From a virus: a stretch of DNA of 64,000 nt. The translations under genes were made by a program, and so were the position numbers. The stretch lies in the IMG/VR virus record IMGVR_UViG_3300024988_000067; one strand, written 5' to 3'. Below, piece by piece: positions 28,905 to 43,608 of this stretch (the first letter of the stretch is position 1; every line of letters begins with the position of its first letter). The notes under the pieces were generated by a model. It saw only the letters and a list, made by a program, of their open reading frames with translations. It was not told the DNA's origin and did not search any database.

Positions 28905-29561
28905 ATGGCCGACTCCACCGCCAAACTCACCCAGCTCACCACCGCCCAGGCCGGTAAGGAAACCACCGTCAACGAACTCATGGCCGCGCTGTCGATCGGC
29001 AGCCCGCTCGCGCGCCGGCAGTCGTCATCCGGATTGAGCTGGGATTACTACGGCGTCGACCGCTGGTATATCAACGCCACCGCCACCACCAAGGCCAACA
29101 CCACGCTCACGCTCACCGCCAGCAGCACGCGCTATGTCGCCGCCGACCGCGCGCTCGCCGTCACCGACAACGCCACTGCGTTCCCGGCCAACAAGCTCGC
29201 GCTGTACAAGGTTGTCACCGGCACCGCTACCGTCACCAGCTACGAAGACCACCGCGACCTCCACCACATCAACCGCTTTCTCTACGGCCGCTTCACCCTG
29301 GCCATGGCCGACGCCAACAAGACGCTGACCTACGAGCAGGCCATGGCCGAATCGATGGAACTCACCGGCGCACTCACCGCACTGCGCGACGTCGTCGTCC
29401 CGCTTGTCCCACGCGCCTGGACTATCTACGCCAACACCAGCGGCGGATTCGGCGTCCGCGTCATTGGCGCCAGCGGCACCGGCATTACCATAGCCGACGG
29501 CAAGCGCGCCATCGTCGAGAGCGACGGCGCCAACGTTGTGCGCGTGACGGCGGACATCTAA
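28905..29561 (+). CDS. Tail fibre/baseplate accessory protein (DUF2793-like N-terminus)
   Basis: QLTTAQAGKETTVNELMAAL; last tail gene. Confidence 0.65.
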   Translation: MADSTAKLTQLTTAQAGKETTVNELMAALSIGSPLARRQSSSGLSWDYYGVDRWYINATATTKANTTLTLTASSTRYVAADRALAVTDNATAFPANKLALYKVVTGTATVTSYEDHRDLHHINRFLYGRFTLAMADANKTLTYEQAMAESMELTGALTALRDVVVPLVPRAWTIYANTSGGFGVRVIGASGTGITIADGKRAIVESDGANVVRVTADI

Positions 29562-29589
29562 TAAGGAGACCCCCGAGAGCGAGGCTGCA

Positions 29590-29790
29590 CCAAAATCACT
29601 TGCAAAACGATTGCGTAAGTATTTGATTTTATTAAGTCGCAAATAGCTGTTTTTGGCTGTAAAATTGATCCTTAAAAATAGCGTAAGGCATTGAATTAAA
29701 TGGATAAAATAAGAGTTCTAATGATCTGCATGGGCAATATCTGAAGCCAGCGTGGTTATTGGCCTTGCAAATCCATTGCAAAGAATTCTC
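29590..29790. other. attP-like site (AT-rich, IHF consensus, core probably within 29727-29743)
   Basis: Downstream of int; rc(29616-29628) = AATCAAatacTTA matches WATCAANNNNTTR; repeated TTGCAAA; contains a host-gene fragment. Confidence 0.7.
29700..29744 (+). pseudogene. 5' fragment of a low-molecular-weight protein tyrosine phosphatase gene (MDKIRVLMICMGNI*)
   Basis: Matches the LMW-PTP/ArsC N-terminus ..VLF(V/I)CMGNICRS; TGA where TGC is expected. Confidence 0.75.
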
Positions 29791-29801
29791 AAAACGAACC
29801 G

Positions 29802-30272
29802 CTATTTCTTAAGCGGAATGCCCGGCTTCGGCGGGGCGAAAATCTCCTTGCCTCTGACCCCTTTGTGGTACCTGTAGTAGAGTGTCCGGTATGGGATGCC
29901 GGTGGCATCGGCCCAGCCTTTTATCGTTCTGCGCACGCCGTCGATCTCGAGGAAGCAGTTGTTCCGCTTGTTTTCGCACTGGGTTTGCATGGACACCCAG
30001 CGGCAGTTGTCCGGTCCATAGCCCGCATTGTTGTTGGCCCGGTCCAGGGTGAGGCCGGGCCTGTATCCGTTCTCCAGCGCCCATATCTCGAAGGACAGGA
30101 AGGAGCTTTGCCATTCCTGGCAAACGCTTATCCCGCGCTCGCCGTAGTTGTGGAAGACCTCGGCCGTCTCGTTCATGCACCGGTACATCATCGAGCGCCA
30201 AACCCTGTAGAGGCTGCTCTCGGCGAGGTCTTGCCCGGTTGCACCGTGGCGCTCGTATCGGCGCTTCGTCAT
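29802..30272 (-). CDS. HNH homing-endonuclease-like protein
   Basis: LYRVWRSMMYRC...NYGERGISVCQEW...LTLDRANNNAGYGPDNCRW; ATGA-coupled to the int stop. Confidence 0.85.
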   Translation of the reverse strand: MTKRRYERHGATGQDLAESSLYRVWRSMMYRCMNETAEVFHNYGERGISVCQEWQSSFLSFEIWALENGYRPGLTLDRANNNAGYGPDNCRWVSMQTQCENKRNNCFLEIDGVRRTIKGWADATGIPYRTLYYRYHKGVRGKEIFAPPKPGIPLKK

Positions 30273-31447
30273 CCCACCTGCACCCTGACCCACTCCGCCC
30301 CGCGGGCGTCCTTGTAGATTGCGGTTGAACGGGGGTCTTTGTGGCCCAGCAGCAGCTGGGTATTGACGTTCCCTTGGTCGTTGTAGAGCCGTTCCGCCAG
30401 GGAGCGCAGTTCGTGGAAGCTGGGCGGGGTTTTGCCGGTTTCCCATAGGGGCGATTCGCTGCGGCTGGCGGCGAGGTCGCGGGCGTCGGCGAAGCGGCGG
30501 GTGATGGTATCTATCCACACCTGGTCGCCTGGATTGCAATTGCCGTAGGGACGTGTGTGGTGGACAGCGTAGCGGCTGACGACGGTGTCACGGCAGCGAG
30601 CGATGACTTCGCCGAGTTCAAGGCCGACGACGTCTAGACGCAGACTTAATGGGATGGCGACGCGGTTTCCGGTTTTTTGCTGGATGACGTAGATGGCGCC
30701 GGACTCGACCCAGGCCGAGGCGCCGGCGCGGGGACGGAATTCGATGCAGGCGATGTCTTCGCGGCGCTGGCCGGTGACGATAGCGAGCTCGATGCTGCGG
30801 GCGATCCACGGCGAGTCGAGTTCGAGGCTGGCAGCGTGGATCTGGCGGAAGCTGTCGAGCACCAGGCGGGCGCGCTGCACTTCGACTGACGGCGCGCGAG
30901 TCTTGGCGAATGGGTTGTCGGTGGCGAGGCCTTCGGCGATGGCGGTCTTGAAGATCTCGATTCCTTCGCTGCGCACGGCCAGCGCCATACGTTCGCGCGG
31001 TGGATCTGATTCGAGGTAGGCGGCGAGGATCTCTACGGCGTCGCGTACGCTGAAAGCGTCGATCGGCAGTTTGCCCTTGGCGCGGGTGATGGCGTTGCCG
31101 ATGCTGCGCTTGGTCTTGAGCGTGTTGGCGGCGAGCTTGCCCTTGGCCTGCAACTTCTCGCAGTGCTCGATGTGCTTGAGGATGACGGCGCCGAGGGTAG
31201 GACCGCTGGGCCTGGCTGTGGCGATGGCATCGACGCGCGCGCCGGCGAGCTGGGCGAGGATGGCGGCGTTGAGCGCTTTGGCGTCGGCGATGGCGGAGAC
31301 CTTGTCGCTGCCCATGCCGTGGAAGGTGCCGGTGCGGATGTCCTTGTAGCGGTAATAGGTGCGTCCGCTGGCGCGGTCTACAGTGGCATAGAGGTTGTCA
31401 GGCAGGTCGAGACTGCCCGGGCGGCGGCGGGGTGGCATGGCGGGCAT
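30269..31447 (-). CDS. int: Phage integrase, lambda-type tyrosine recombinase with arm-binding N-domain
   Basis: LPDNLY...YYRYKDIRTG N-domain; TGQRREDI, SFHELRSL, LLGHK, Y catalytic residues. Confidence 0.95.
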   Translation of the reverse strand: MPAMPPRRRPGSLDLPDNLYATVDRASGRTYYRYKDIRTGTFHGMGSDKVSAIADAKALNAAILAQLAGARVDAIATARPSGPTLGAVILKHIEHCEKLQAKGKLAANTLKTKRSIGNAITRAKGKLPIDAFSVRDAVEILAAYLESDPPRERMALAVRSEGIEIFKTAIAEGLATDNPFAKTRAPSVEVQRARLVLDSFRQIHAASLELDSPWIARSIELAIVTGQRREDIACIEFRPRAGASAWVESGAIYVIQQKTGNRVAIPLSLRLDVVGLELGEVIARCRDTVVSRYAVHHTRPYGNCNPGDQVWIDTITRRFADARDLAASRSESPLWETGKTPPSFHELRSLAERLYNDQGNVNTQLLLGHKDPRSTAIYKDARGAEWVRVQVG

Positions 31448-31455
31448 AGTAAACC

Positions 31456-32478
31456 TTATGCGGCGATCCGGTCGAGCGGGCTGATCGCACCGGCGGCGCC
31501 GCGTTTGACGACGTGGGTATAGATCATGGTGGTAGAAACGTCAGAGTGACCGAGCAGTTCCTGTACGGTGCGGATGTCGCTACCTGTTTCGAGCAGATGC
31601 GTGGCGAAGCTGTGGCGGAGGGTATGGCAGCTTGCAGGCTTATGGATGCCGGCCGCGATTACGGCGGCGCGCATGGCGCGCTGGATGCCTTTTTCATGGA
31701 TGTGGTGGCGGCGCACGACGCCGGTGCGTGGATCGGTGCTGTAGTCGGCCGCGGCGAATACGTATTGCCATGCCCATTCCTTCGGCGCGTTCGGATATTT
31801 CTTCCACAGCGCATGCGGTAGTTCGACGTCGACCATGCCGCGCGCGAGGTCGATGTCGTGCATCTTGCGGCGGACGGCGAGCTGATCGCGCAGCGGCTGC
31901 ACCAGGCTGGCAGGTAGCGGGACGACGCGGTCCTTGTCGCCCTTGCCGCCGCGCACCAGGATGATGTTCGAGTCGAAGTCGATGTCCTTGACGCGCAGCC
32001 GCATGGCTTCCATGAGGCGCATGCCGGTTCCGTAGAGCAGCCTGATGATCAGCCCGCTCGTGCCCTTGGTATGGGCAAGCACTGCAGCCACCTCGGACTG
32101 GCTCAATACGACAGGAAGCCGGGCCGGTTTCTTGGCGCGCGTGATGTTGTCGAGCCATGGCAGGTCGATTCCGAGCACATGCTTGTATAGGAAAAGCAGC
32201 GCTGCGAGCGCCTGATTTTGCGTGCTGGCAGAAACGTCACGCTCATTTGCGAGCATCGACAGGAAGGCTTCTATCTCGGGCGCTCCCATGTCGGCAGGGT
32301 GGCGAAGGCCGCTCCAGTGGATGAAGTGCTTGACCCAGCTGATATAGGTGCGCTCAGTGCGCAAGCTGTAGTGCTTGACACGGATCGCCGCGCGCATCTG
32401 GTCTAGCAGCTTGGGCTTGGCGGACACGGATGCCTTGTCCTGCTGCTGTGTCTCGATATGATCGATAGTTTCAGTCAT
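31456..32478 (-). CDS. intI: Integron integrase (not class 1)
   Basis: KHYSLRTERTY, STQNQALAALLFLY, LYGTGMRLME, GKGDKDR, integron-specific insertion LPHALWKKYPNAPKEWAWQYVF...DPRTGVVRRHH, HTLRHSFATHLL, IRTVQELLGHSDVSTTMIYTH all intact. Confidence 0.97.
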   Translation of the reverse strand: MTETIDHIETQQQDKASVSAKPKLLDQMRAAIRVKHYSLRTERTYISWVKHFIHWSGLRHPADMGAPEIEAFLSMLANERDVSASTQNQALAALLFLYKHVLGIDLPWLDNITRAKKPARLPVVLSQSEVAAVLAHTKGTSGLIIRLLYGTGMRLMEAMRLRVKDIDFDSNIILVRGGKGDKDRVVPLPASLVQPLRDQLAVRRKMHDIDLARGMVDVELPHALWKKYPNAPKEWAWQYVFAAADYSTDPRTGVVRRHHIHEKGIQRAMRAAVIAAGIHKPASCHTLRHSFATHLLETGSDIRTVQELLGHSDVSTTMIYTHVVKRGAAGAISPLDRIAA

Positions 32479-32520
32479 GGCGCTGGCTCCATGGTTGTCA
32501 TTATCAGGTTATAAGACAGG

Positions 32521-32569
32521 TTGATAGATTCGCGGACATCAGGGTGTCGTAGAATTTAAGTTAGCGGTC
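32521..32569 (+). other. attI site; crossover G/TT at 32560/32561
   Basis: gtcgtagaatttaaGTTAGCG just upstream of, and divergent from, intI; the core is mirrored by R'' of attC1. Confidence 0.8.
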
Positions 32570-33305
32570 ACAGGCTGCACGTCCTGCATTTGTTGGCTGA
32601 AAACCCAAACAGGTCGCCAGTCAACTCAGTGCCGCGTGGTATCTCGCCGCGCTCAAAAACATCCCGCAGTTCCGCCAGCGAGGCGGGCCAAGTGTCGCGG
32701 CTCGGGCTTCTGAATGTGTGCCCTATCGCCTGCTCCTGTTCCACCGCGTCCTGGTAAATCTCCGGGTGCTCTTTCCACAACATCCACCATTCCGGTAGCG
32801 TCTGGAAAAAACACCTAGCACAGTCCGTTCTTTCTGGTATCTGCACATCCCGATCCATCAAATACCCAAGCACATCACCCAAACCCCAACCCCAATCCCT
32901 GAAAGGGAAGCGAACTTCGCAGTTCTCATAAATCCCGCCCTCGCGGCCTTCCTCATCTGCCCGCAGCCCGATATACAAAACCACCTTGTTTCCCTGCTCG
33001 GCCTGGCGGTTTATCCACTCCTGGCAAGTTTCAATTTTCAAAACCCTAGTGCAAAACCGCTTCTGCCAATTCGGCAGGCATTTTTCCCGTTCGCACAAAC
33101 CCTTAAAATCTACCTCTGCGGTCAGCCGCGTCAGCCGCTTCCCGATCAGGCATTCCAGCCTATCCCAGTGCTCCAGCATCACCGGCAATTCATCGCCGGT
33201 GGGTGTGCACAAAAACACATAGTCCTGCGGCTCAATTTCGGCCAAGCGTAGCGCCAGCGCCGTGGAGTCTTTGCCGCCTGATAAACCAACTACGTGTAGT
33301 TCCAT
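32568..33305 (-). CDS. Cassette 1: PAPS-reductase-family (PP-loop) protein with Cys motifs
   Basis: VVGLSGGKDS, RFCTRVLKI, YIGLRADEEGR, RTDCARCFFQ; RBS GAGGA before MELHVV. Confidence 0.85.
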   Translation of the reverse strand: MELHVVGLSGGKDSTALALRLAEIEPQDYVFLCTPTGDELPVMLEHWDRLECLIGKRLTRLTAEVDFKGLCEREKCLPNWQKRFCTRVLKIETCQEWINRQAEQGNKVVLYIGLRADEEGREGGIYENCEVRFPFRDWGWGLGDVLGYLMDRDVQIPERTDCARCFFQTLPEWWMLWKEHPEIYQDAVEQEQAIGHTFRSPSRDTWPASLAELRDVFERGEIPRGTELTGDLFGFSANKCRTCSL

Positions 33306-33320
33306 GTCATCCTCAAAGAC

Positions 33321-33381
33321 CGCTAACACGGCGGTCAACAGCGACCGCGCGAAGCGCGGCGCGTTACCTTAGTCGTTGGCC
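33321..33381 (+). other. attC1 (61 bp)
   Basis: R'' (gac)CGCTAAC, L'' GGT(C)AAC pairs with L' GTTACC, R' GTTGGCC. Confidence 0.9.
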
Positions 33382-33412
33382 GCCACCTTTGCGCGGTGGC
33401 GGGTTCCTACTC

Positions 33413-33595
33413 TTATGCCGTTTCGAGTGCGCTCTCGTTCCACCAGCTTTCCACGGCGCGGCCGTCGGCGGCTTTGTAGCGCAGCAGGTAGCTGTTCCCA
33501 CCTACCGCGTATTCCGCTCTGGCGATAATGCTGCCCGTTTCACCGCTGGCCGAAATCTTCACGGTCTGGTTCATGCTGAAGGTAAATCCGTTCAT
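33413..33595 (-). CDS. Cassette 2: small phage-type protein (60 aa)
   Basis: ORF track; fills the cassette. Confidence 0.7.
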   Translation of the reverse strand: MNGFTFSMNQTVKISASGETGSIIARAEYAVGGNSYLLRYKAADGRAVESWWNESALETA

Positions 33596-33639
33596 TTGCT
33601 GCCCCTGTTCAAAATGCCGTGCCTTCGTTTGGGCGGCAC

Positions 33640-33703
33640 GGCCAACCCGTTAATCAAGCGGGACCGGCGCTAAAGCGCCGGCCCCTTATTGCTGTCGTTG
33701 GGC
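33640..33703 (+). other. attC2 (64 bp)
   Basis: GGCCAAC, AAT(C)AAG/CTTATT, loop gcgctaaagcgc, GTTGGGC. Confidence 0.9.
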
Positions 33704-33912
33704 ACCTCATCATTCAGCTTTGCCAGCAGCTCCGGGTGAACAAACAGCGTGTTGCCGCTTCGGTACATTGCTGGCCTGTCGATCCGGTGCTTAACCACCA
33801 GCCAGTTGCGGCGGCGCTTCTTTATCGGGTTCCGCTCGATGCGCCACACAGTCCGCACTTCGCGGGCCATCGGTGCGCTCACAACGGTCAATCCGTAAAT
33901 CGTTCGGTTCAT
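33670..33912 (-). CDS. Cassette 3: hypothetical protein (MNRTIYG...), stop lies in attC2
   Basis: RBS GGAGAGG; ends VPNDSNKGPAL*. Confidence 0.7.
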   Translation of the reverse strand: MNRTIYGLTVVSAPMAREVRTVWRIERNPIKKRRRNWLVVKHRIDRPAMYRSGNTLFVHPELLAKLNDEVPNDSNKGPAL

Positions 33913-33932
33913 GGTTTCCTCTCCGGGCCAGT

Positions 33933-34019
33933 GCCCAACAATCCGGTCGAGCCGAGGCCCGCCAGCGTCTTTAATCCTTGCCGTGTTCCGTAAGGCCCGG
34001 CTCACCGCAAGCGTTCGGC
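33933..34019 (+). other. attC3 (87 bp)
   Basis: GCCCAAC, GGT(C)GAGC/GCTCACC, GTTCGGC. Confidence 0.9.
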
Positions 34020-34273
34020 GTCAGCTTCACGAATCCTCGGGCGACCATGTACGGGTCGCGCTCTGGGTGATACCGCCGCGCTTCAATGTTCTTCGCCGGC
34101 TTCAGGCTCAACATCCGCCGCCAGTATTTTCCGCAGGCCAGCGCCCGCTCGTGGTTCGCGGCCGCCACGTAAACCGAGCTGCCGCACTGCTTGCCCTTGC
34201 GGTCTATCGGGTACACCTCCCACTGCAATCGTTCGGGGTTCGCGCCCCACTTTCTCGGGTCGTCGTAGCTCAC
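33971..34273 (-). CDS. Cassette 4, ORF b (GTG start, 100 aa), stop lies in attC3
   Basis: GTGA overlap with ORF a; ends TPNACGEPGLTEHGKD*. Confidence 0.65.
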   Translation of the reverse strand: MSYDDPRKWGANPERLQWEVYPIDRKGKQCGSSVYVAAANHERALACGKYWRRMLSLKPAKNIEARRYHPERDPYMVARGFVKLTPNACGEPGLTEHGKD

Positions 34274-34488
34274 AGGTCTTTCTCCATCACTCGGCACGGC
34301 CAGTGATGGCCGCAGTTTGCACAGGCGGCTGTGTCCAGCCGGGTTGTTTTCAGCGCGGCCGGCGATCCGTTGGCCATCAGCCAGTGGTAGGCGTGGCGTC
34401 CGCAGCGCGGGCACCGGCGCTCAATCTTGGCCGGCAGCCGCCGAACCCGTCGCTCCAGAGGGACGCCCTCCATGCCGCTTCGCGTCAT
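34270..34488 (-). CDS. Cassette 4, ORF a: CxxC...CxxC zinc-ribbon protein, start inside attC4
   Basis: CPRC...CANC; RBS GGGGAGA and ATG lie within attC4. Confidence 0.6.
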   Translation of the reverse strand: MTRSGMEGVPLERRVRRLPAKIERRCPRCGRHAYHWLMANGSPAALKTTRLDTAACANCGHHWPCRVMEKDL

Positions 34489-34518
34489 TCCGGTCTCCCC
34501 TGATCTAGTGCGTTAGGC
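34440..34518 (+). other. attC4 (79 bp)
   Basis: GCCGAAC ... GTTAGGC; L boxes imperfect. Confidence 0.75.
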
Positions 34519-34803
34519 ATCGTCATGCTCTTGTTCACGCATCGCCATATCAATCGCGTCCCGCAGGCTGTGCAGGTTCGCGGTCACGCAATGGGTCGGA
34601 AGTTGCACGTTGCCCACAGGGTTGTCCGGGTCGCTCAACCAGTCCAGCCGTGCCGCATCGGCACGCAGTCTTTTGTTCTCGCGCTCCAGTTCGCGCAGCT
34701 TGTTCGCCGCCTGCCTCATCGCCTCTGCCTTTACTGGCGTGGTCGCCCTATTGGCTTCGCGGTCCAGGTAGCCCGCATATCGTTGTGCCATGCTCATCTT
34801 CAT
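34513..34803 (-). CDS. Cassette 5: phage-type coiled-coil protein (DAARLDWL motif)
   Basis: Stop TAA is formed by the cassette core TTA. Confidence 0.75.
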   Translation of the reverse strand: MKMSMAQRYAGYLDREANRATTPVKAEAMRQAANKLRELERENKRLRADAARLDWLSDPDNPVGNVQLPTHCVTANLHSLRDAIDMAMREQEHDDA

Positions 34804-34810
34804 CCTCTGC

Positions 34811-34871
34811 GCCTAACCCGGCGCTCAAGCGGGACCGCGCTAAAGCGCGGCCCCTTAGCTATGCGTTGGGC
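34811..34871 (+). other. attC5 (61 bp)
   Basis: GCCTAAC, GCT(C)AAG/CTTAGC, loop gcgctaaagcgc, GTTGGGC. Confidence 0.92.
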
Positions 34872-35116
34872 CACTCTGCAACCGTGGTCACGTCTTTCGA
34901 TGCGCCGCACCTCTTGCAAAGGTAGCCGGTGGTTGTCCACTTCAGTCCGTCGCCGTCCGGGTCAAGGTCGAGCGATCCGCTTGTGATTGACCATCGGTGC
35001 AGCCCTAGCGCACAAAGCAGTGGTGTGTATCCAATTTTTGCGGCCAGCGTTTGCAGCCCAACCCGGCAGTCGAGCGGAGGCTCGGCAGCGGCTTTGTGGT
35101 CTTTGCTATCGTTCAT
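34859..35116 (-). CDS. Cassette 6: Cys/His small protein (85 aa), start in attC6 and stop in attC5
   Basis: MNDSKDHKAAAEPPLDCRVG...LCALGLHRW...CKRCG...WPNA*. Confidence 0.7.
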   Translation of the reverse strand: MNDSKDHKAAAEPPLDCRVGLQTLAAKIGYTPLLCALGLHRWSITSGSLDLDPDGDGLKWTTTGYLCKRCGASKDVTTVAEWPNA

Positions 35117-35145
35117 TCTCGCCCTCGCTAACTTTTGCGTTGGGC
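35056..35145 (+). other. attC6 (90 bp)
   Basis: GCCCAAC, AGT(C)GAGC/GCTAACT, GTTGGGC; near-identical to attC7. Confidence 0.88.
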
Positions 35146-35357
35146 ACCTTGCATTTAGGAATCTCGGTTGCCATTGCGCGGCCCTCGTATGTGTCGCGCC
35201 GCCACCACCAGTATTCCGCGCCATCAAATCCGCAATGCACGCAGCATCCGTCATCGTCCCATTCGTGGCCGTTGTTCAGGGATCGCTTAGTCCGTTGCCC
35301 AACCCGGCAGTCGAGCGGAGGCTCGGCAGCGGCTTTGTGGTCTTTGCTATTTTCCAT
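35106..35357 (-). CDS. Cassette 7: zinc-ribbon small protein, start in attC7 and stop in attC6
   Basis: GHEW....CCVHCG; ends VPNAKVSEGENER*. Confidence 0.7.
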   Translation of the reverse strand: MENSKDHKAAAEPPLDCRVGQRTKRSLNNGHEWDDDGCCVHCGFDGAEYWWWRRDTYEGRAMATEIPKCKVPNAKVSEGENER

Positions 35358-35386
35358 TCTCGCCCTCGCTCACTTTTGCGTTGGGC
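35297..35386 (+). other. attC7 (90 bp)
   Basis: GCCCAAC, AGT(C)GAGC/GCTCACT, GTTGGGC. Confidence 0.9.
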
Positions 35387-35580
35387 ACCGGGTCATATTG
35401 ATACTCAAACCCATCGCACTTGACCCCTTCGTCGCCTCGCATCATTTCCATAGTCAGGCCACACGCGCCCGTAATGATCTCGTGCGGGTAATCCGGTATG
35501 AAGTGCGTGCAGTTCTGGCATATGCGGTCGCAGTTACACAAACCGGGGAAACACTTTTCGCAAAACGCAAACGTAACCAT
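35347..35580 (-). CDS. Cassette 8: Cys-rich small protein, stop lies in attC7
   Basis: CEKC...CNC..ICQNCTH...GAC...KC; ends VPNAKVSEGENGK*; start uncertain. Confidence 0.65.
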   Translation of the reverse strand: MVTFAFCEKCFPGLCNCDRICQNCTHFIPDYPHEIITGACGLTMEMMRGDEGVKCDGFEYQYDPVPNAKVSEGENGK

Positions 35581-35586
35581 TTCAGT

Positions 35587-35648
35587 GCCCAACAAGTTAA
35601 TCGAGCGGGACCGTCGCAAGCGCCGGCCCCTCATTGCTGGCGTTCTGC
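35587..35648 (+). other. attC8 (62 bp)
   Basis: GCCCAAC, AAT(C)GAG/CTCATT, GTTCTGC. Confidence 0.9.
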
Positions 35649-35932
35649 GGAATTTCCGCGCTGTCATGCGGTAGCTTCCCAACTTGTCGCAAATAGCCGA
35701 TATAGTTTTCGTCCGCCACTAATGAGACGCACATCAGTTCATATGGTCCTTTGTACGCCGTGCGCGGCACCTCGCCGGGCGCGGACTCCGGTTTTTCAAG
35801 GCACTTGAATCCGATGCTGAAAACAAACCCTGGAATCATCGGCAGCGCGTCGGCGCGAATCTTCAGTTCGCCAATCACCTTGTCATTTAGGAAACTCTCC
35901 AGAACCGGCACCGTTATAAATTCATCTTTCAT
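35597..35932 (-). CDS. Cassette 9: hypothetical protein (111 aa), stop lies in attC8
   Basis: RBS AAGGA; ends PQNASNEGPALATVPLD*. Confidence 0.75.
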   Translation of the reverse strand: MKDEFITVPVLESFLNDKVIGELKIRADALPMIPGFVFSIGFKCLEKPESAPGEVPRTAYKGPYELMCVSLVADENYIGYLRQVGKLPHDSAEIPQNASNEGPALATVPLD

Positions 35933-35965
35933 TTTTTTGTCCTTTCTTCGTAGTTACCAAATTCC

Positions 35966-36028
35966 GCAGAACACAACGCTCGTGTGGGACCGCCGCTAAA
36001 GCGGCGTCCCCACAGCTAAGCGTTGGGC
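35966..36028 (+). other. attC9 (63 bp)
   Basis: GCAGAAC, GCT(C)GTG/CACAGC, loop gctaaagc, GTTGGGC. Confidence 0.9.
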
Positions 36029-36231
36029 ACCAGGCCATGCTGCGCAAACAGTGCAACGTCCTCGGCGTCCGCAAACTTTGTTCCGCCGCCTTGCGAGTAC
36101 AGGCTGCGGACGGCTGGTGTCGCATGCCCTTCCTCGCGCAGCAATACGGCCACGGCGCAGTAGTAGCCGCGCGACCACTCGCGGCTTGCGATGTCGTCGA
36201 TCACCTTGTTAATCCGGTCGGCAAATGCCAT
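36016..36231 (-). CDS. Cassette 10: hypothetical protein (MAFADR...), stop lies in attC9
   Basis: RBS AGGAG; ends VPNA*. Confidence 0.7.
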   Translation of the reverse strand: MAFADRINKVIDDIASREWSRGYYCAVAVLLREEGHATPAVRSLYSQGGGTKFADAEDVALFAQHGLVPNA

Positions 36232-36248
36232 GTTCTGCTCCTGTTCGT

Positions 36249-36308
36249 GCCCAACCATTTATTCAACTCGGACGCGCTAAAGCGCGCCGGTTATGTCAAG
36301 CGTTAGGC
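36249..36308 (+). other. attC10 (60 bp)
   Basis: GCCCAAC ... loop gcgctaaagcgc ... GTTAGGC; L boxes imperfect. Confidence 0.82.
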
Positions 36309-36596
36309 ACACAAACGCAGTGCATCAATGGCATTGATTGCGGCGGCCTTATCTGAGTCGGGTGCCGGTGTGGAGCGAATAGCGATCTCCATTGCGTCCA
36401 GCTCCTCTTTTGTGCTGGCTCCGATCAGTCCGGCCAGTGCATTACGCAGCCGCTCAATCTTTTGCTCTGCCTCGCGCATAGGATGTTTCTCGCAATTCTT
36501 TATGTGTTCAGTCAACAGTTCATGCTTTGCGGCTGGTGTTCCGTCTGGGTATTGGTGCCCGCAATAAACACAGGTTACAACATTGTTTTCACTCAT
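36303..36596 (-). CDS. Cassette 11: zinc-finger-like (CVYC...HIKNC..H) phage-type protein
   Basis: Stop TAA is formed by the core TTA. Confidence 0.75.
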   Translation of the reverse strand: MSENNVVTCVYCGHQYPDGTPAAKHELLTEHIKNCEKHPMREAEQKIERLRNALAGLIGASTKEELDAMEIAIRSTPAPDSDKAAAINAIDALRLCA

Positions 36597-36616
36597 AATT
36601 CAATTCTCCCAAAAGT

Positions 36617-36692
36617 GCCTAACAAGGCAAATTAACTGCGACCGTTCCGGTCGCTGCGCTCCCTACACGTCGCGTTATTTGCAACGTTAGCC
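36617..36692 (+). other. attC11 (76 bp)
   Basis: GCCTAAC, AAAT(T)AAC/GTTATTT, GTTAGCC. Confidence 0.88.
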
Positions 36693-36878
36693 GCCACGTG
36701 TGCCGCCCAATTCGCGCAGCTTGTCGCATACCCATTGTGGGTCTGTCACGCTACCGCCAGGCATCACTTCGATTGCCCGGTTTAGTGCGGCCTTCCACGC
36801 AGCGCGCGCAACCCATTCCTGTGCTTCTGGGTCGTATTTCATCCCTTCGCGTTCAAACCATTGTTCAAATTCGTCCAC
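36687..36878 (-). CDS. Cassette 12: small phage-type protein (GTG start)
   Basis: FEQWF...VARAAWKAA; RBS GGAGAG lies inside attC12. Confidence 0.7.
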   Translation of the reverse strand: MDEFEQWFEREGMKYDPEAQEWVARAAWKAALNRAIEVMPGGSVTDPQWVCDKLRELGGTRGG

Positions 36879-36965
36879 GTCTAACTCTCCATTCCAGGCG
36901 AGGCCGTGGAGCAGCCTTCACCCATAGTTGTGTTCTTTCGGCCCGCCTAAATTTCAGCGTTGGCC
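36879..36965 (+). other. attC12 (87 bp), last attC of the array
   Basis: GTCTAAC, ATT(C)CAGG/CCTAAAT, GTTGGCC. Confidence 0.78.
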
Positions 36966-36969
36966 GTCA

Positions 36970-37611
36970 CTACGCCGCCACCGGGAACGTGCGTTGCACT
37001 TGGATGTGCCGATCCTTCACGCGCTCATCCGTCATCACGGCTCGCGGGCCGCGCCGGTAGAACTGAAGCGCCAAGCTCAGCGCCGCGCCCCACTGCGCGC
37101 CCGAGAGACCGATGGCGCGGATGCGTGCGTTGGCAAAGCCCGCTGTCTCAATCTCTTCGCGGTCTCGCTCCCACGCTTCGCGGTCGTCCCACGTTTCCGG
37201 TTCGTACTTCCGCTCCAACAGGTGCCGCAGAATCTAGGCCGCCGTGATGTGAATGCACTGCTCGTAGCCGGGGCCAAAGCCTCCCATTTCAATGCTCCAG
37301 CAGGTTCCGCCGTCGTCCCACCGCTTCAGCCAGTCCGCAGCGTCAGCGCCGTAGGTGTCGATCTCGTGCTTTTCCTTGTCCTCGGCTTCGGTGCGATAGA
37401 ACACCTTCTGGCCGTCGAGAAACAGGCCGCGCACCGTGAAGCCGATTCCCTTGCCGTAGAAGCGCGCCGTCATGCCCTCTGTCGGTACCACGGGAGAGGG
37501 CGCAGGAACGTAAAAGCTCCAGCCGTCAGCCCGCTCGATGCTCCAGCCTTTGCCCTCGTCGCGCACTTTGGCGACTGTGGTTTCTTCAAACTGCTCGTCA
37601 TTCGGGTACAT
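36970..37611 (-). pseudogene. Hypothetical gene interrupted by one in-frame TAG (37234-37236)
   Basis: ...CIHITAA*ILRHLLERKYE... continues in the same frame to 36970. Confidence 0.7.
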
Positions 37612-37636
37612 GGTTTTCCTTTCGTTGTAAGTTGCC

Positions 37637-37852
37637 GTGCCGGCCAACCATCCAAACAGGGGGCCGAAATGCCCCTCTGCAAATCCAGCGCCAGCAGAAA
37701 TCCGGGAGGCCCGCGAAGCTGCTGGGATGTCGCAAACGGCGGCTGCATCCCTCATCCACTGCACCCTTCGCGGGTGGCAGGAGTGGGAGGCAGGCAACCG
37801 CAAAATGCACCCGGCGTTCTGGGAACTGTTCCGCATCAAATCAGCCCTCTAA
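37637..37852 (+). CDS. Small XRE-family HTH protein
   Basis: ANHPNR...EIREAREAAGMSQTAAASLI...WQEWEAGNRKMHPAFWELF. Confidence 0.75.
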   Translation: MPANHPNRGPKCPSANPAPAEIREAREAAGMSQTAAASLIHCTLRGWQEWEAGNRKMHPAFWELFRIKSAL

Positions 37853-37854
37853 CA

Positions 37855-38091
37855 TCACGCTGCCGCCCTGAATATCACGGCTGCCCGATCGGACAGATTC
37901 ACGATTGCCCTGTCCGCTGGTGCAGCCTGCGCATGGGTATAGATGGCGTCGCGCTCGACATACCAGGTGCGGCCGGCTTTGATTGGGGCGGGCTGGATGT
38001 GGCCTGAGCGGGCCCAGGCGCGCAGGGTTGGCAGGGTCGGCTGGGGGTCGAAATGCAGGGCTGCCCAGGCTTCTAGGGTGATGCGTTTCAT
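37855..38091 (-). CDS. xis: Excisionase (lambda-like Xis)
   Basis: MKRITLEAWAALHF..QPTLPTLRAWARSGHIQPAPIKAGRTWYVERDA. Confidence 0.85.
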   Translation of the reverse strand: MKRITLEAWAALHFDPQPTLPTLRAWARSGHIQPAPIKAGRTWYVERDAIYTHAQAAPADRAIVNLSDRAAVIFRAAA

Positions 38092-38549
38092 GTCGGCTTC
38101 CGGTTGAGGGCGTCGCCGCGGTCGACTCGGCGGCGCACTTCGAGCATGGCGGCGCGCGCGCCGTCGCGGGTGATGTTGGCCAGCTGCGCTTCGTGGATCT
38201 CGACTGCGTGCGCGAGGGCGGTGTAGCCGGGCCCGTGGAATGCCCATTTGCCGAGGCGGCGATGGCGTTCGAGGATTTCGATCAAAGCGTCCTGGGCGGT
38301 CTGGATGTCAGTAAGGTATTCGGCGCCGACACCGCGTTCGCACAGTACGAGGCTGACGTTGACCGCAGCAGCGAGGGCGTGCCAGTCAAGTTCGATGCCG
38401 TTGCCGGTGCGCATGCGCTCGATGCTGGTATGGATGGCCATGCCAAGATCGGTGAGCTGATCGTCTGTGAGCTGATGCTGCATGGCGATGGCATGCGACC
38501 AGGCGCTGCGGTCGGCGCGGTAGGGGCGGTATTTGGAGCGTTTTCTCAT
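38088..38549 (-). CDS. Conserved phage hypothetical protein (153 aa)
   Basis: ATGA-coupled to xis. Confidence 0.7.
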   Translation of the reverse strand: MRKRSKYRPYRADRSAWSHAIAMQHQLTDDQLTDLGMAIHTSIERMRTGNGIELDWHALAAAVNVSLVLCERGVGAEYLTDIQTAQDALIEILERHRRLGKWAFHGPGYTALAHAVEIHEAQLANITRDGARAAMLEVRRRVDRGDALNRKPT

Positions 38550-38561
38550 GCTTCGATCCTC

Positions 38562-39149
38562 CTAAATTCGACCACCCACAAGCTGCAATTCCAGCGCCAT
38601 ATCCGGAGCGCAATCAGGATTGCGCGGCCGGACAACGGCTGCCATCTTGTCGACGTTGAGGTCGCCCAAGAAACTCGCGATCTGTTCGGCGGTGACGCGC
38701 GGCCTTGCGATCATGTCCTCGAAGCGAAGGTCGAGGATGTGCTTGACGCCTGCCGTTCGCAGCGAGCGAACAGCTAATATCACATCTTCCTTGAAGGAAC
38801 GGGCGAGGGTCGCACGATATTCCCGATTGACTGGAAGCCCCATCATTTCACGAAGGAATTTCGCGTGTGACTTGGCCTGCTCCATTGGATCGCGCCTGCA
38901 CCATATCGCCTTCGTACTGATTCCATTGGGAAGTGTGTATGTCTGCGGATCAAGCAGTTTGAGTGCATGGCCGCTGATTCCGTGCAGACGTTCAGCATCA
39001 ATGAATTCTGGTTTCACGATATCGGATGCCTCGAATGCTGGATATTCGCCTGTTACGGGCATGCCGCCTGCTTCCAGCATTTGCATGACAAGCGATGATC
39101 CACAGCGCCCGAAACCACATACGAGGGTGATGGATTCGTGTGTGTTCAT
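38562..39149 (-). CDS. Sulfotransferase-family (P-loop) protein
   Basis: VCGFGRCGSSLVMQML (5'-PSB-like), WCRRDP (3'-PB-like), LRFEDM. Confidence 0.7.
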   Translation of the reverse strand: MNTHESITLVCGFGRCGSSLVMQMLEAGGMPVTGEYPAFEASDIVKPEFIDAERLHGISGHALKLLDPQTYTLPNGISTKAIWCRRDPMEQAKSHAKFLREMMGLPVNREYRATLARSFKEDVILAVRSLRTAGVKHILDLRFEDMIARPRVTAEQIASFLGDLNVDKMAAVVRPRNPDCAPDMALELQLVGGRI

Positions 39150-39201
39150 GCTGCCATTCCCCCAAGGTCAAGCTCTTCATTGAACAGGATCGGGCGCTCT
39201 T

Positions 39202-39459
39202 TCATCCCGCTCTCCGCTTGAGAATCACCGGATGCGCCCACATCGCCGAGACAATTCCCGCTGGGCCGCCGGCCAGGGTGGCGAGTATTTCGCTCCATCC
39301 CGCCCCTGGAAGGGTGCGCCATAGATAGATCTGGCACGCGCCGATGACAAGGCTGGTGAGCGCGGCTGCCTTGAAGTGGCGGTGAATCACGTTCTGCTGC
39401 TGGAATCCGAGCGCAAATACAGTGAGGTATGCGCTGGTGAACAGGGCAAGTTCGGTCAT
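39202..39459 (-). CDS. Small membrane protein (copy B)
   Basis: Repeat of 453-710. Confidence 0.7.
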   Translation of the reverse strand: MTELALFTSAYLTVFALGFQQQNVIHRHFKAAALTSLVIGACQIYLWRTLPGAGWSEILATLAGGPAGIVSAMWAHPVILKRRAG

Positions 39460-39501
39460 GACGCACCCCGCTTCATCAATTCTCGGTCGACGTGGTCGTG
39501 C

Positions 39502-39735
39502 TCAATCGCTGGCATTGCACACCTCTGCGAGTTTGCGGATACGGCCGTCGCGCAGCAGCGCCACGATCTCTTCGCGGTATTTGATGAGGTCGTCGAGCCA
39601 GTCCGGCAGTAGGGGAAGCGGCCACGAACGGCGATGCGTGGCGATGATGCTGTCAAGCCGCTCGATGGCGTCGCGCTGCTGGGCAAGCGAATAGCATCGG
39701 CGGTCTTCGTCCGGGGAATGCAGGCGGGCAGTCAT
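39502..39735 (-). CDS. Hypothetical protein (copy B)
   Basis: Repeat of 753-986. Confidence 0.55.
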   Translation of the reverse strand: MTARLHSPDEDRRCYSLAQQRDAIERLDSIIATHRRSWPLPLLPDWLDDLIKYREEIVALLRDGRIRKLAEVCNASD

Positions 39736-39893
39736 GCAACCACCTTTTCGGCGAGCTGCCACAGGACGATCAGCGCGAGGCCGATACAACAGGCCCAGCC
39801 GATGACGCTGTCGATGCGGCGATGGCAGGGGATGCCGCGCGAGGCGGCGCGGTTGGCGTCGCGGATCTGTTGGCGGGTGGAAAGTCCGTTCAT
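39732..39893 (-). CDS. Small membrane protein (copy B)
   Basis: Repeat of 983-1144. Confidence 0.55.
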   Translation of the reverse strand: MNGLSTRQQIRDANRAASRGIPCHRRIDSVIGWACCIGLALIVLWQLAEKVVA

Positions 39894-40123
39894 GCGGCCT
39901 CCAGATCAAGCGCGAGGTTGAATGCGACGGCCGGGTCGGCGTCGTTGGCGCGCTCGCAAGCCACCAGGGCGAGCAGCAGGATGTCGTCGCGGATGCGGTG
40001 GTCCGGCTCGTCCCGTGCGTCGCGCAGCAGGTCGCTGGCCAGTTCGTCCCAGATGGCTGGGTCGGCCTGGTCGATGGCGTCCTGCCAGCGGCAGGCGGTG
40101 CCGGTGGGGAGAATGATCGTCAT
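39890..40123 (-). CDS. Hypothetical protein (copy B)
   Basis: Repeat of 1141-1374. Confidence 0.6.
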   Translation of the reverse strand: MTIILPTGTACRWQDAIDQADPAIWDELASDLLRDARDEPDHRIRDDILLLALVACERANDADPAVAFNLALDLEAA

Positions 40124-40156
40124 GTCTCGCTCCTGATAGGTTGGCTTCTGCGTTCG

Positions 40157-40996
40157 TTACGGCTTTCCGACACTCAGTTCTCCGACATAAACCCCTGCCA
40201 ATGCGTCTCCAAGCTCGTCGCGCAGTGTTTGCTCGACCCACGCGCTGGTTTCCTCCTGCAGGCGTTCACGGCCGACGATGCGCAGTGCGATACCGGGTTT
40301 TCCATCGTTCTCGCGCACGCCGAGACGGATGACGATTTCGAGCAAGTTGGTGCCAACGTAAAGCGGGCTGTGAAGGATGAAATAGGCAGGCAGCGTTTCG
40401 GAATCGCCTCGCGCTTCGATACTTTCGAGTGCGGTGCGGTTGCGGGCGAGGTCTCCTTCCTCGTTGACTACGCTGGCCTTGGCTTCGATCTTGACGCGCC
40501 GCAAGGCGGTGATGGCTTTGCGTTGCTCGATCCCGGCGCCGTCCTGGGCATGCGCGGTGATGTGTTCGGGCCAGTCTTCGAGCCAGTCGATCACCTGCAG
40601 CTGGGTGCGCAGGTTTTTGGTCATGACGTCGGCGGCGGCCCATGCTGGTGCGGCGCGCAGATTGAGCACGGCGCGGTGATGGCCCCACTGCGGCGATTCG
40701 TCGTGGCCGTGGTCGAATACCGCCATTGCGGCACTGCCGTCGGGGCGAACGTAGGCGGTGGGGGCGAAATCTTCTCCTAGGTCGGCCGCTGACTGCTTGG
40801 CATAGGCGATGAAGTCGCCGATGCGCTCGGTGGTGTAGCGATGGCGCTGGAAGCGCGGCGCAGAAGCGAACTGCTCGGCATGCTGCAGCGTTGCGCCGGG
40901 CGGAATGTAGAGCGCATGCCCGACGGTTTCGGTGTTGATCAGCTCGGCGATCTTGTCGTTGATCGCGCTGATACGGTCGATGGCTGCGGCTTCCAT
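40157..40996 (-). CDS. DUF2303/YfdQ-family protein (copy B)
   Basis: Repeat of 1408-2247. Confidence 0.8.
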   Translation of the reverse strand: MEAAAIDRISAINDKIAELINTETVGHALYIPPGATLQHAEQFASAPRFQRHRYTTERIGDFIAYAKQSAADLGEDFAPTAYVRPDGSAAMAVFDHGHDESPQWGHHRAVLNLRAAPAWAAADVMTKNLRTQLQVIDWLEDWPEHITAHAQDGAGIEQRKAITALRRVKIEAKASVVNEEGDLARNRTALESIEARGDSETLPAYFILHSPLYVGTNLLEIVIRLGVRENDGKPGIALRIVGRERLQEETSAWVEQTLRDELGDALAGVYVGELSVGKP

Positions 40997-41353
40997 TTAT
41001 ACCACCTCCCGCTGCTGTTTCTGGATGAGTTCGAGCTGCGTGTCGGGCGTTATGGTGAGCTTTCCGCCTCGGCCAACGTATAGCAGGGTCTGCGTGGTGT
41101 CGGTCTCCTGAATCTTGCCGCGCAGGGTGGGGCGGGCGTAGCTCAGCTTGTGGGTCATTTGTACTTGGGCGCCTTCGCCGATGCGGGTGATGTCGAGCTC
41201 GATGGTGATCTTGCCGGACTGTTTCTTGCTGTCTGCGTTGACCACCGCGCGGGCGGTTTCGGCCAGCGCGTGCGCTACCTTGCGTTCGAAGATCCCGGCG
41301 TCGAGCTCCTCGAGCACGGGAATGAAGCCGGGCACGTTCGTTGCGTCTGTCAT
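40997..41353 (-). CDS. YfdP-like protein (copy B)
   Basis: Repeat of 2248-2604. Confidence 0.75.
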   Translation of the reverse strand: MTDATNVPGFIPVLEELDAGIFERKVAHALAETARAVVNADSKKQSGKITIELDITRIGEGAQVQMTHKLSYARPTLRGKIQETDTTQTLLYVGRGGKLTITPDTQLELIQKQQREVV

Positions 41354-41504
41354 GTTCTGCTCCTGGTTGATGGACTGTTTCCCCAACATCACCCTGCGTC
41401 TTCGTGAGGCTCCTAGCCGGTTGCCCGACCGTGGGATGGGTCTGTGCCCATCACGTCTGCCGCCTGGGGTGCGCCAACTTGGGCGCGCGGCTACGAGGTG
41501 ACCT

Positions 41505-41551
41505 AATTATTCATACATGTATTAGATATGTCAATACATGCATGAATAATT
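41505..41551 (-). promoter_or_regulatory. pL-like promoter/operator (copy B); the copy directly upstream of the cassette array
   Basis: Repeat of 2756-2802. Confidence 0.8.
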
Positions 41552-41686
41552 CATGGCACAATGAAGCCACGCCCGAGGTTGGCGGGTTCAAAAGGGGGTC
41601 AGAAATGGAGATGCGTGACGGTGAAATTACGGTGGGCGATTGCCCGGAATTCACTGTGGGGTTCAGCTACTGCGGTATCGCTGTGA

Positions 41687-41881
41687 CTATGAGCGTGAAA
41701 ATCGAAGAGCGAGCTTTGCTAATGCCGCTTGACTACCCACGAGATAGTACCGAACGGTTGACTGCTGTTTGTGCTCAGGCAATCGGGAGCACAGCTCGTC
41801 AAATCGCTGCGCAAGCGCTGCAAGCTCACACTGAATTTGAGCAAACGCTACGTCAGGCGGATATTGATGATCATCGGTCAT
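41687..41881 (-). CDS. Hypothetical protein (copy B)
   Basis: Repeat of 2938-3132. Confidence 0.45.
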   Translation of the reverse strand: MTDDHQYPPDVAFAQIQCELAALAQRFDELCSRLPEHKQQSTVRYYLVGSQAALAKLALRFSRS

Positions 41882-41884
41882 GGG

Positions 41885-42310
41885 TCAGTCCTGCCATGAT
41901 CTGACCGATTCGACCGTGACGTCGAAGCGTTTGATGGCGGGGTCGTGTTCGAGCCAATGGTCCAGCGAAAACACATAGCGGCCGGGTGGAATGTTCTTGA
42001 CGCTCGCCGGCCAGGCGGCGTGCGATGCGATCGGGGCGCCCGATTTGTCGTATCCGGTCATCCTTAGCTGAATGCCGACTGCCGCGCGGCAATTGTTGAT
42101 CAGTTCGCCTGCGCCTTGCAGGTAGGCACAGGACATGGTGCGGCAGTTGTCTACCCAGCGGGCGCGGACGGATTTGATCACGATGTCGCCAGGGCGGCAT
42201 TCCGTTTGGGATGCAACGGCAATCGATCCGGTGTGCCTGGGCGTATCGATCAGCGGGTAGAGGATTGCGGTGCCGATGGCTGATGCGATTAGGATTTTTC
42301 GCGTATTCAT
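41885..42310 (-). CDS. Exported protein (copy B)
   Basis: Repeat of 3136-3561. Confidence 0.65.
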   Translation of the reverse strand: MNTRKILIASAIGTAILYPLIDTPRHTGSIAVASQTECRPGDIVIKSVRARWVDNCRTMSCAYLQGAGELINNCRAAVGIQLRMTGYDKSGAPIASHAAWPASVKNIPPGRYVFSLDHWLEHDPAIKRFDVTVESVRSWQD

Positions 42311-42862: not shown

Positions 42863-43231
42863 TTACCCGTGTTTTTGTTCTTCTGATTCAGCAAGTGTAA
42901 GTGCTGTGCTGACAAGCACGGCTTTCTTGTAGCTCGGTAGAACCTGCATTACATGCTGCAAGGTCTGCATCTGCTTATCGTCCTCAAGCGGAGTTTCGCC
43001 AAGTAGCTGTGAGGTTGTCACCCCGAAATAGGCCCCCAGCACCTTCAGCGTCGGTAGCGTCGGAGTGTAGTTCTGGACATTGAGGATGCGCCAAATCGTC
43101 GGCTGGAAATCCTTTTTTTGGTCGGGATTCGACGGATCAATCTCCGCAAGCTTGGCGGCCAATTGATGCGCATTGACTCCGTCCCGCTCCATCAATGATG
43201 CGAGCACCCCTTTAATCGTTGGTTCGGACAT
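42863..43231 (-). CDS. cI: CI-like repressor (copy B)
   Basis: Repeat of 4114-4482. Confidence 0.75.
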   Translation of the reverse strand: MSEPTIKGVLASLMERDGVNAHQLAAKLAEIDPSNPDQKKDFQPTIWRILNVQNYTPTLPTLKVLGAYFGVTTSQLLGETPLEDDKQMQTLQHVMQVLPSYKKAVLVSTALTLAESEEQKHG

Positions 43232-43317
43232 GCCGCCTATTGTCCAGTGCAGTTGTATCGCAGGGAAATACATTGGTGTATATTGCATATTATTCATCGA
43301 TGTATTAATCTGGCGTT

Positions 43318-43608
43318 ATGTTCAAGCGATTGATCGAAGACCTCATTGAAACCGGGATGACTGAAACAGCCATCGCGTTGCGTGTCGGCGCTTCCCAGGC
43401 GAGCATCAACAGGATCAAACGCACGAACCAGAACCCTAAGTACGAGCTCGGCGTAGCACTCGTCGCGCTTCATGGGCAGATCACACAAAAGCAGACGGTA
43501 ACGGAACAGGCACCTGAATCGACCTTCGGCGATCTTGGCGAGCCGCGCGACAGCGAGCGCCGGGTGGAAGATCGCCGGACGACCTGTGCCGACGAGAAGG
43601 CCGCTTGA
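43318..43608 (+). CDS. cro: Cro-like regulator (copy B)
   Basis: Repeat of 4569-4859. Confidence 0.75.
   Translation: MFKRLIEDLIETGMTETAIALRVGASQASINRIKRTNQNPKYELGVALVALHGQITQKQTVTEQAPESTFGDLGEPRDSERRVEDRRTTCADEKAA

Follow-up and report, generated by a model that had tools for sequence, protein, structure and literature searches.

A phage-borne integron array in which every cassette gene is antisense to its attC site

Integron cassettes are inserted in a single orientation so that the cassette promoter Pc can express them. No sequenced integron contains cassettes that face the promoter, as Nivina et al. (2016, PMC5027507) pointed out. Integron components also occur in phage genomes, and complete integrons have been described in temperate phages (Qi et al., 2023, PMC9892861); these cases comprise fragments of host chromosomal integrons, class 1 integrons carried by P1-like phage-plasmids, a defective prophage of Shewanella, and clusters of attC sites that lack an integrase. 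Here we describe an integron in the virus record IMGVR_UViG_3300024988_000067, which was analyzed as one stretch of 64,000 nucleotides (nt) that we will term the window. Its recombination sites are arranged as in other integrons, but all of its cassette genes are on the opposite strand. In a full-text search of the literature, we came across neither reversed cassette arrays nor a phage clade of integron integrases (IntI).

Bases 1-25251 of the window are identical to bases 38750-64000, so the element is a circle of 38,749 bp that was wrapped past its origin. The window reads this circular genome 1.65 times, and features in 1-25251 are duplicates due to the wrapping rather than repeats within the phage. 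The genome encodes a replication initiator, large terminase, portal, major head protein, tape measure, and tail proteins. It also encodes a lambda-type integrase with an arm-binding domain, an excisionase of the Exc family, and a cro-like regulator, whose gene is divergent from that of a putative repressor. The element is a complete siphovirus-like temperate phage. Near-identical DNA is present in metagenome runs from bioreactors and wastewater, from at least two to three studies. Probable hosts are Thiobacillus, Sulfuricella, or Nevskia-like bacteria. Among GenBank phage records, we found only a 266-bp match to intI1 and otherwise no relative.

Polarity of the attC sites and of the cassette genes

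The integron is between xis and int of the phage and consists of the following features.

31456..32478, minus strand: intI, the integron integrase; its stop is 8 nt before the start of int
32479..32566, plus strand: attI, with direct repeats at 32506-32518 and 32523-37, core GTTAGCG at 32560-66, and crossover between 32560 and 32561
32561..33375: cassette 1; attC1 33321-33381 (plus; 68.6 bits with the covariance model R1, described below); gene 32568-33305/33338 (minus), PAPS-reductase-like (phrog_424, E 7e-31; PF01507)
33376..33697: cassette 2; attC2 33640-33703 (plus; R1 75 bits); gene 33413-33595 (minus), 60 aa (phrog_8618, E 2.6e-28)
33698..34011: cassette 3; attC3 33933-34017 (plus; called by its fold); gene 33670-33912 (minus), 80 aa, stop inside attC2, codon score 15.0 vs. 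0
34012..34512: cassette 4; attC4 34439-34518 (plus); genes 34270-34488 (72 aa, Cys-rich) and 33971-34273 (100 aa), both minus, coupled by a GTGA overlap
34513..34865: cassette 5; attC5 34811-34871 (plus; R1 84 bits); gene 34513-34803 (minus), 96 aa, core site forms its TAA stop (phrog_37882, E 6e-6)
34866..35139: cassette 6; attC6 35056-35145 (plus); gene 34859-35116 (minus), 85 aa, Shine-Dalgarno (SD) motif and ATG within attC6, codon score +3.5 vs. -28 for the plus-strand reading frame
35140..35380: cassette 7; attC7 35297-35386 (plus; 96% identical to attC6); gene 35106-35357 (minus), 83 aa, codon score +8.2
35381..35641: cassette 8; attC8 35587-35647 (plus; R1 67 bits); gene 35347-35580 (minus), 77 aa, Cys-rich, codon score +9.8 vs. 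-44 for the plus-strand reading frame
35642..36022: cassette 9; attC9 35966-36028 (plus; R1 73.8 bits); gene 35597-35932 (minus), 111 aa, codon score 29.7 vs. 0
36023..36302: cassette 10; attC10 36249-36308 (plus); gene 36016-36231/36258 (minus), 71-80 aa, codon score 20-24.7 vs. 16.5 for a mirrored plus-strand reading frame, the least clear call
36303..36686: cassette 11; attC11 36617-36692 (plus); gene 36303-36596 (minus), 97 aa, codon score 13.1 vs. 0 (phrog_38675, E 1.7e-4)
36687..36959: cassette 12, the last; attC12 36879-36965 (plus; R1 18.7 bits); gene 36687-36878 (minus), 63 aa, codon score 9.9 vs. 0

The platform is canonical: intI is followed by attI and then by cassettes whose attC top strand is the plus strand. 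This follows because conservation ends at the G/TT of attI, the sequence to the left of cassette 1 lacks palindromes, and the array ends on the right with a complete attC. First, the intI product matches TIGR02249 over the entire profile (positions 1-315 of 315) with 476 bits, against a cutoff of 265, and it branches inside a tree of 106 IntI sequences. When we aligned outward from the start of intI, seven relatives (IntI 83-88% identical) were conserved through the two direct repeats to ...AATTTAAG, and all similarity among them was lost exactly at G/TT, between 32560 and 32561. Second, to the right of intI are twelve imperfect palindromes of 60-90 nt with RYYYAAC...GTTRRRY ends. The twelve fit the attC pattern: they have R'', L'', L', and R' boxes, bulges mostly in the L'' arm, and, at 9 of the sites, a bottom strand that folds more stably than the top strand. 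They divide 32561-36959 into 12 cassettes of 241-815 bp (boundaries at G/TT: 32560, 33375, 33697, 34011, 34512, 34865, 35139, 35380, 35641, 36022, 36302, 36686, and 36959). Third, we found no attC or other palindrome to the left of cassette 1. A scan of 29000-42000 with filters off, using R1 (which was built from the plus strand of six of the twelve attCs), found no thirteenth or decayed attC to the right of 36965.

Four independent tests agree that the attC top strand is the plus strand: bulges, energy and composition, cross-matching, and the end of attI. As controls for polarity, we used attCs from a class 1 integron that come after two aadA genes, and we read them on the coding strand of aadA. 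The bulged bases of the plus strand are mostly in the 5' arm (30 vs. 8 nt over the 12 sites), and the aadA controls have the same bias. The minus strand folds more stably, by 1.5 kcal/mol, at 9 of the 12 sites, and the plus strand is purine-poor; these traits of the bottom and top strands of attCs were described previously (Nivina et al., 2016, PMC5027507). R1 detects all twelve sites on the plus strand, and it finds the aadA attCs on the strand that encodes aadA (54 and 34 bits). In two sets of attCs next to other intI genes, its matches are always on the strand directed away from intI (128/128 and 72/72). An automatic count of bulges in the relatives' long attCs was noisy (134 vs. 156 nt), and we set it aside; the difference in folding energy and the base skew of those sites are consistent with the same polarity.

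An earlier sequence-only reading of this DNA had assigned the same top strand, in part because the R'' boxes match the core. The matching is real (11 of 12 are perfect and one has a single mismatch). As it is symmetrical, it gives no polarity by itself, and we dropped it as a test because both parses predict complementary boxes that flank a gene. Separately, the viral contig L004 has a lone attC match (15024-15091, plus strand, 37.6 bits) on the opposite strand, 4 kb downstream of intI and outside of any array, which suggests a second attC or array beyond the integrase.

All 13 cassette genes are antisense to their own attC. The 12 cassettes contain 13 open reading frames (ORFs): one on the minus strand in each cassette, with two coupled ones in cassette 4. 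With a codon model trained on 307 long ORFs, the minus-strand ORFs have positive scores, and they show the pattern of GC content across codon positions (GC1/GC2/GC3) of real genes. The alternative ORFs on the plus strand cross attC boundaries and have scores that are negative or lower. The proteins from cassettes 1, 2, 5, and 11 match PHROG families; for most of the small cassette proteins, we found no match in NCBIfam or Pfam. Also, cassette 4 is shared with L015 (a Sulfuricella contig) at 82% nucleotide identity, and the differences are concentrated at third codon positions: the ratio of synonymous to non-synonymous changes is 12:4 and 18:20 in the minus frames, as against about 10:45 in the plus frames. 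Thus the codon statistics, the PHROG matches, and the third-position bias uphold the sequence-only reading's claim that the 13 ORFs are on the minus strand, as are xis, the early-left genes, intI, and int.

As a result of this orientation, the attC of each cassette precedes the start codon of its gene instead of trailing the gene. Depending on which starts are chosen, 4-6 of the 13 start codons are inside the cassette's own attC, and in attC6 and attC7 the ribosome-binding site is there as well. Seven stop codons are in the neighbor's attC, three stops are the TAA of the core site, and neighboring genes overlap in three places (the two genes of cassette 4, cassettes 7 and 6, and cassettes 8 and 7).

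The ends of the genes show some other regularities. Genes exit via the R' box in one common frame (...Pro-Asn...) and stop in the neighbor's attC (35106-35145, 35347-35386, 36016-36028, 34859-34871, and 33670-33703). Because they read through the R' box into the neighboring attC, their last residues depend on which cassette is next to them. For example, the proteins from cassettes 7 and 8 have the common tail VPNAKVSEGEN, which is encoded by attC6 and attC7. These attCs are part of twin 93-nt stretches (35056-35148 and 35297-35389, 96% identical) whose bottom strand contains GAGG and ATG, so that the proteins from cassettes 6 and 7 have nearly the same 20 N-terminal residues on unrelated Cys-rich bodies.

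A phage-linked clade of integrases with antisense arrays

The antisense layout is common to a whole clade of phage-linked IntIs and is not an oddity of one phage. We gathered loci with related IntIs from collections of viruses, genomes, and metagenomes, and called the coding strand of their cassettes with the same codon model. In the 15 arrays with an IntI that shares about 65% identity or more with that of the window, 56 genes were called as antisense, 2 as sense, and 21 as unclear. In 22 arrays with more distant IntIs (including Luteimonas, Ramlibacter, Nitrotoga, and Tepidiphilus), the corresponding numbers were 18, 74, and 61 (Fisher p = 1e-22). Such a survey had been suggested from the sequence alone. 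In the tree of 106 IntIs, all 13 of the arrays classed as antisense are in one clade of 16 (SH-aLRT, the Shimodaira-Hasegawa-like approximate likelihood ratio test, gives 96), which implies one change. The clade is sister to the integrons of Hydrogenophilales/Thiobacillus and contains all of the IMG/VR contigs, along with contigs from metagenome-assembled genomes that share phage genes with the window.

Two other kinds of data from the relatives bear on orientation. Their Pfam matches are on the strand of intI (Dam, C5 methylase, PAPS reductase, and DHH/DHHA1), and the opposite ORFs have no match. Also, 62% of the clade's attC sites have an SD-like motif on the bottom strand, at the exit toward the gene, as against 26% of other sites; on the top strand, these motifs are at 6% of the clade's sites and 19% of the others.

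There are signs that the content of these arrays turns over. Closely related IntIs (83-88% identical) adjoin arrays with entirely different content, and L013, which has upstream phage genes in common with the window, has a single cassette. PAPS-reductase-like cassettes are also present in the relative L003. Cassette 4 is at a different position in the array of L015; the attCs upstream of the two copies have the same length (80 vs. 81 nt) and align almost without gaps, but their identity is 0.68, as compared to 0.55-0.67 for unrelated pairs, which does not discriminate which attC travels with the gene. A 2.7-kb metagenome contig (runs X4/X5) joins 35055 to 35297 and lacks 241 bp, precisely as many as cassette 7 contains. 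The contig may come from a natural variant without one of the twin cassettes, or it may be due to homologous recombination or assembly collapse between attC6 and attC7, which are 96% identical.

Two side observations concern pieces outside of the array. In L002 (6967-7554), a homolog (59% identity over 66 aa) of the 201-aa ORF at 37234-37839, which is just beyond the last attC, is a bona fide cassette. In the window, this ORF may be a fossil cassette, or the end of the array may have decayed there. One contig from the aquatic metagenome run X6 has the end of attC1 (33371) joined to the first base of cassette 1 (32560), with 3 differing letters between them. A circular cassette or a tandem copy of a relative of cassette 1 would look like this. 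Pieces of this attC family reach summed depths in the thousands in the same run.

The early-left operon and the expression of the cassettes

The features around the integron are as follows.

29802..30272, minus strand: HNH endonuclease gene (phrog_3377, E 4.6e-51), the final gene of the minus-strand block; its start overlaps the stop of int
30269..31447, minus strand: int, lambda-type phage integrase (PF09003 arm-binding domain and PF00589)
36970..41392, minus strand: early-left genes, tightly packed upstream of the array, as follows: an 82-aa ORF; the 201-aa ORF; xis at 37855-38091 (PF07825 Exc, E 2.4e-15); a phrog_20828 gene; a sulfotransferase-like gene (PF13469); a phrog_7045-like gene, 85 aa; two small ORFs; a DUF2303 gene (PF10065); and a phrog_204 gene
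41506..41550, minus strand: candidate early-left promoter, TTGACA-17-AATAAT at 41534-41506, which matches 11/12 consensus positions
42863..43608: immunity region, with the putative repressor gene at 42863-43297 (minus), assigned by position alone, and the divergent cro-like gene at 43318-43608 (plus), assigned by phrog_6831/6223

Between 41392 and 29802, about 29 ORFs follow one another on the minus strand, and no gap exceeds about 110 nt. This block comprises ten early-left genes including xis, the 13 cassette genes, intI, int, and the HNH gene. As the cassette genes are on the bottom strand of attC, a Pc promoter at attI cannot serve them. The sole Pc-like match on the plus strand (32435-32462, inside intI, 9/12) is not conserved in the relatives. 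Upstream of intI, we found no LexA box (CTGT-N8-ACAG) in 32479-32560, even with one mismatch, and the aligned relatives have no conserved -10 element there, only a conserved SD motif. Also, intI ends 8 nt before int, which leaves no room for a promoter, so transcription of int must arrive through intI, and most simply through the array. As int is needed for lysogeny and there is neither a LexA box nor a conserved -10 element by intI, int would be reached by transcription that passes through or past the array.

The near-consensus promoter that the sequence-only reading had pointed out is real as a sequence match, and it is the only 11/12 match in the 14 kb that we scanned (30000-44000), with no other strong promoter-like site. 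The promoter is inside a 19-nt inverted repeat that consists of two copies of an operator-like motif, ATTATTCATNNATGTATT. A third copy of ATTATTCATNNATGTATT is at 43289-43306, in the gap between the repressor and cro genes, so that there are 3 sites per genome as compared to 0 expected by chance. A promoter flanked by operators is the layout of a repressor-controlled pL, and control by the repressor is plausible. More broadly, the region has the features of a lambdoid early-left operon: divergent putative repressor and cro-like genes, a leftward promoter with shared operator-like motifs, and xis and int at the end of the operon. No terminator is predicted on the minus strand between the promoter and the array; strong terminators there would have isolated the array from pL.

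The best-supported mechanism for expression of the cassettes is, we think, read-through from the early-left promoter, which we judge to be probable by a modest degree given the arrangement of sites and genes. One long unit on the minus strand would start at the operator-flanked promoter at 41534-41506, pass xis, run through the array from cassette 12 to cassette 1, and continue into intI, int, and the HNH gene. The cargo would then be produced along with IntI and Int, at infection or upon induction. We infer that this transcript would also reverse the usual position effect, with the newest cassette (next to attI) expressed last, and that the cargo would be silent in the lysogen, as the sequence-only reading had it.

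Several observations weigh against this mechanism, or against the orientation that it assumes. None of the RNA runs that we searched contains the phage; three RNA-like runs have 5-6% of its words. The distance from the promoter is 4.5 kb to the array and 9 kb to cassette 1, and the proposed transcript would bear 12 stable attC hairpins. The only terminator-like site on the minus strand within the array is the stem of attC11 (36654-36638), which has a weak T-rich tail, and Rho-dependent termination or a requirement for an antiterminator may bear on read-through. In-silico scans for consensus promoters miss real cassette promoters, so internal promoters are possible (PMC11014356). Finally, the coding calls are weak for cassettes 6-8, and in cassette 10 the mirrored plus-strand ORF scores nearly as high as the minus-strand one.

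Two side observations concern the neighborhood of this promoter and its putative transcript. A terminator-like hairpin on the minus strand (41552-41571) is just upstream of the promoter, at the end of the repressor-side genes, which include an ORF with a HIRAN domain (42307-42789); this hairpin could insulate the early-left operon from the lysogenic transcript. Also, the sulfotransferase-family gene (38562-39149) and the PAPS-reductase-like cassette gene (32568-33338) are on the same putative transcript.

Another explanation for the orientation is that each backwards cassette is driven by its own promoter, within the cassette or its attC, and that running in the direction of the operon merely avoids head-on transcription. 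Reverse-oriented cassettes that carry promoters do exist in the superintegrons of Vibrio, and promoter prediction fails on them (PMC11014356). Also, an attC is directly upstream of every gene and could contain the signals. This explanation seems unlikely, although it fares best of the alternatives, because we found no promoter-like site with at least 9/12 matches on the minus strand between 41506 and 30000, and because the gaps between genes are almost entirely attC. The overlapping genes, and the stops inside the neighbor's attC, suggest coupled translation on one mRNA, and the reversal affects nearly all of the clade's cassettes rather than a minority of them.

A second possibility is a frozen accident: an ancestral phage captured a platform that happened to be oriented this way, the clade has since exchanged cassettes solely within a pool of its own, and many of the ORFs are unexpressed or non-functional. 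This would fit with all antisense arrays belonging to one IntI clade, for which the tree needs a single change, and with most cassette ORFs being small and without an assigned function. We consider it to be quite improbable because the orientation of a platform leaves the inverted relation of gene to attC inside each mobile cassette unexplained. Furthermore, the shared cassette 4 is under purifying selection in the minus frames, the cargo includes phage protein families, and SD-like motifs are enriched on the bottom strand.

Last, it is very improbable that we have misread the polarity, either because the true top strand is the minus strand and attI is at the xis end (the matching of R'' and R' boxes fits both parses equally, but not the break in conservation by intI, the complete attC at the right end, or the agreement of bulges, folding energies, base skew, and cross-matches with the aadA controls) or because ordinary cassettes were inserted upside down, which we ruled out because top-strand recombination would flip the attC along with the gene (PMC5027507), yet every attC within an array has normal polarity (12/12 here and 200/200 in the relatives, with the lone match in L004 outside of the arrays).

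Implications and comparison with known systems

Why would a phage keep such cassettes? We propose that this phage-specific branch of IntI maintains its own pool of attC-first cassettes, and that the pool allows plug-in exchange of early accessory genes, probably anti-defense genes, that are read by the early transcript. As IntI and Int would be on the same message, shuffling would be tied to infection or induction and not to the SOS response of the host and LexA. The arguments for and against this proposal seem to us to be evenly balanced. The cargo exchanged in this way would include, for example, methylases, PAPS-reductase-like and DHH enzymes, and small zinc-ribbon-like proteins.

Whatever its function, a whole clade breaks the expression half of the orientation rule for integrons while keeping the recombination half. 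If our explanation is correct, then the polarity of gene to attC can evolve, which bears on the unsolved origin of cassettes, and the integron serves the phage as a device for swapping genes under the phage's own regulatory circuit. Phages may then swap early cargo, probably for counter-defense, site-specifically and beyond what mosaic recombination alone allows. Also, pipelines that assume sense cassettes would mis-orient or miss such arrays.

On the recombination side, the element is an integron in its IntI, attI, and attC sites; on the expression side it is not, as it departs from integrons in sense genes, Pc, and a LexA-controlled promoter for the integrase (Pint). It resembles the canonical integrons (class 1, and the chromosomal integrons of Beta- and Gammaproteobacteria) in having a TIGR02249 IntI, attI at the 5' end of intI, direct repeats, G/TT, attCs of the form R''-L''-L'-R' with bulges, a top strand that points away from intI, and variable arrays. 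In canonical integrons, the genes are on the top strand of attC, the attC comes after the gene, and Pc drives expression. Here, in contrast, the genes are on the bottom strand, the attC comes before the gene, we found neither a conserved Pc nor a LexA-controlled Pint, and the platform is part of a phage operon.

A second comparison is to the inverted-integrase integrons of the Treponema denticola type, which were reportedly described by Boucher and colleagues in 2007. These are similar in that intI and the cassette genes point the same way. However, in that type it is intI that is flipped: it reads toward attI, the array is downstream of it, and the genes are sense to attC. In this phage, intI diverges from attI and attC as is normal, and only the genes are flipped. 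Here, attI and the array are at the 5' end of intI, upstream of it, and just 8 nt separate the stop of intI from int.

For the phages with integron components mentioned above (PMC9892861), no reversed gene polarity, phage-specific IntI clade, or placement inside an int-xis operon was reported. The reverse cassettes of superintegrons, such as toxin-antitoxin and promoter cassettes, are a minority within sense arrays and have their own promoters, whereas here reversal is the rule for whole arrays across the clade and internal promoters are not evident. Finally, the pL operon of lambda is similar in having a repressor-controlled leftward promoter, a long unidirectional operon that ends in xis and int, and variable accessory genes. 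The difference is that the accessory block of this phage is a site-specific cassette array with its own recombinase, rather than a product of illegitimate or homologous mosaic recombination.

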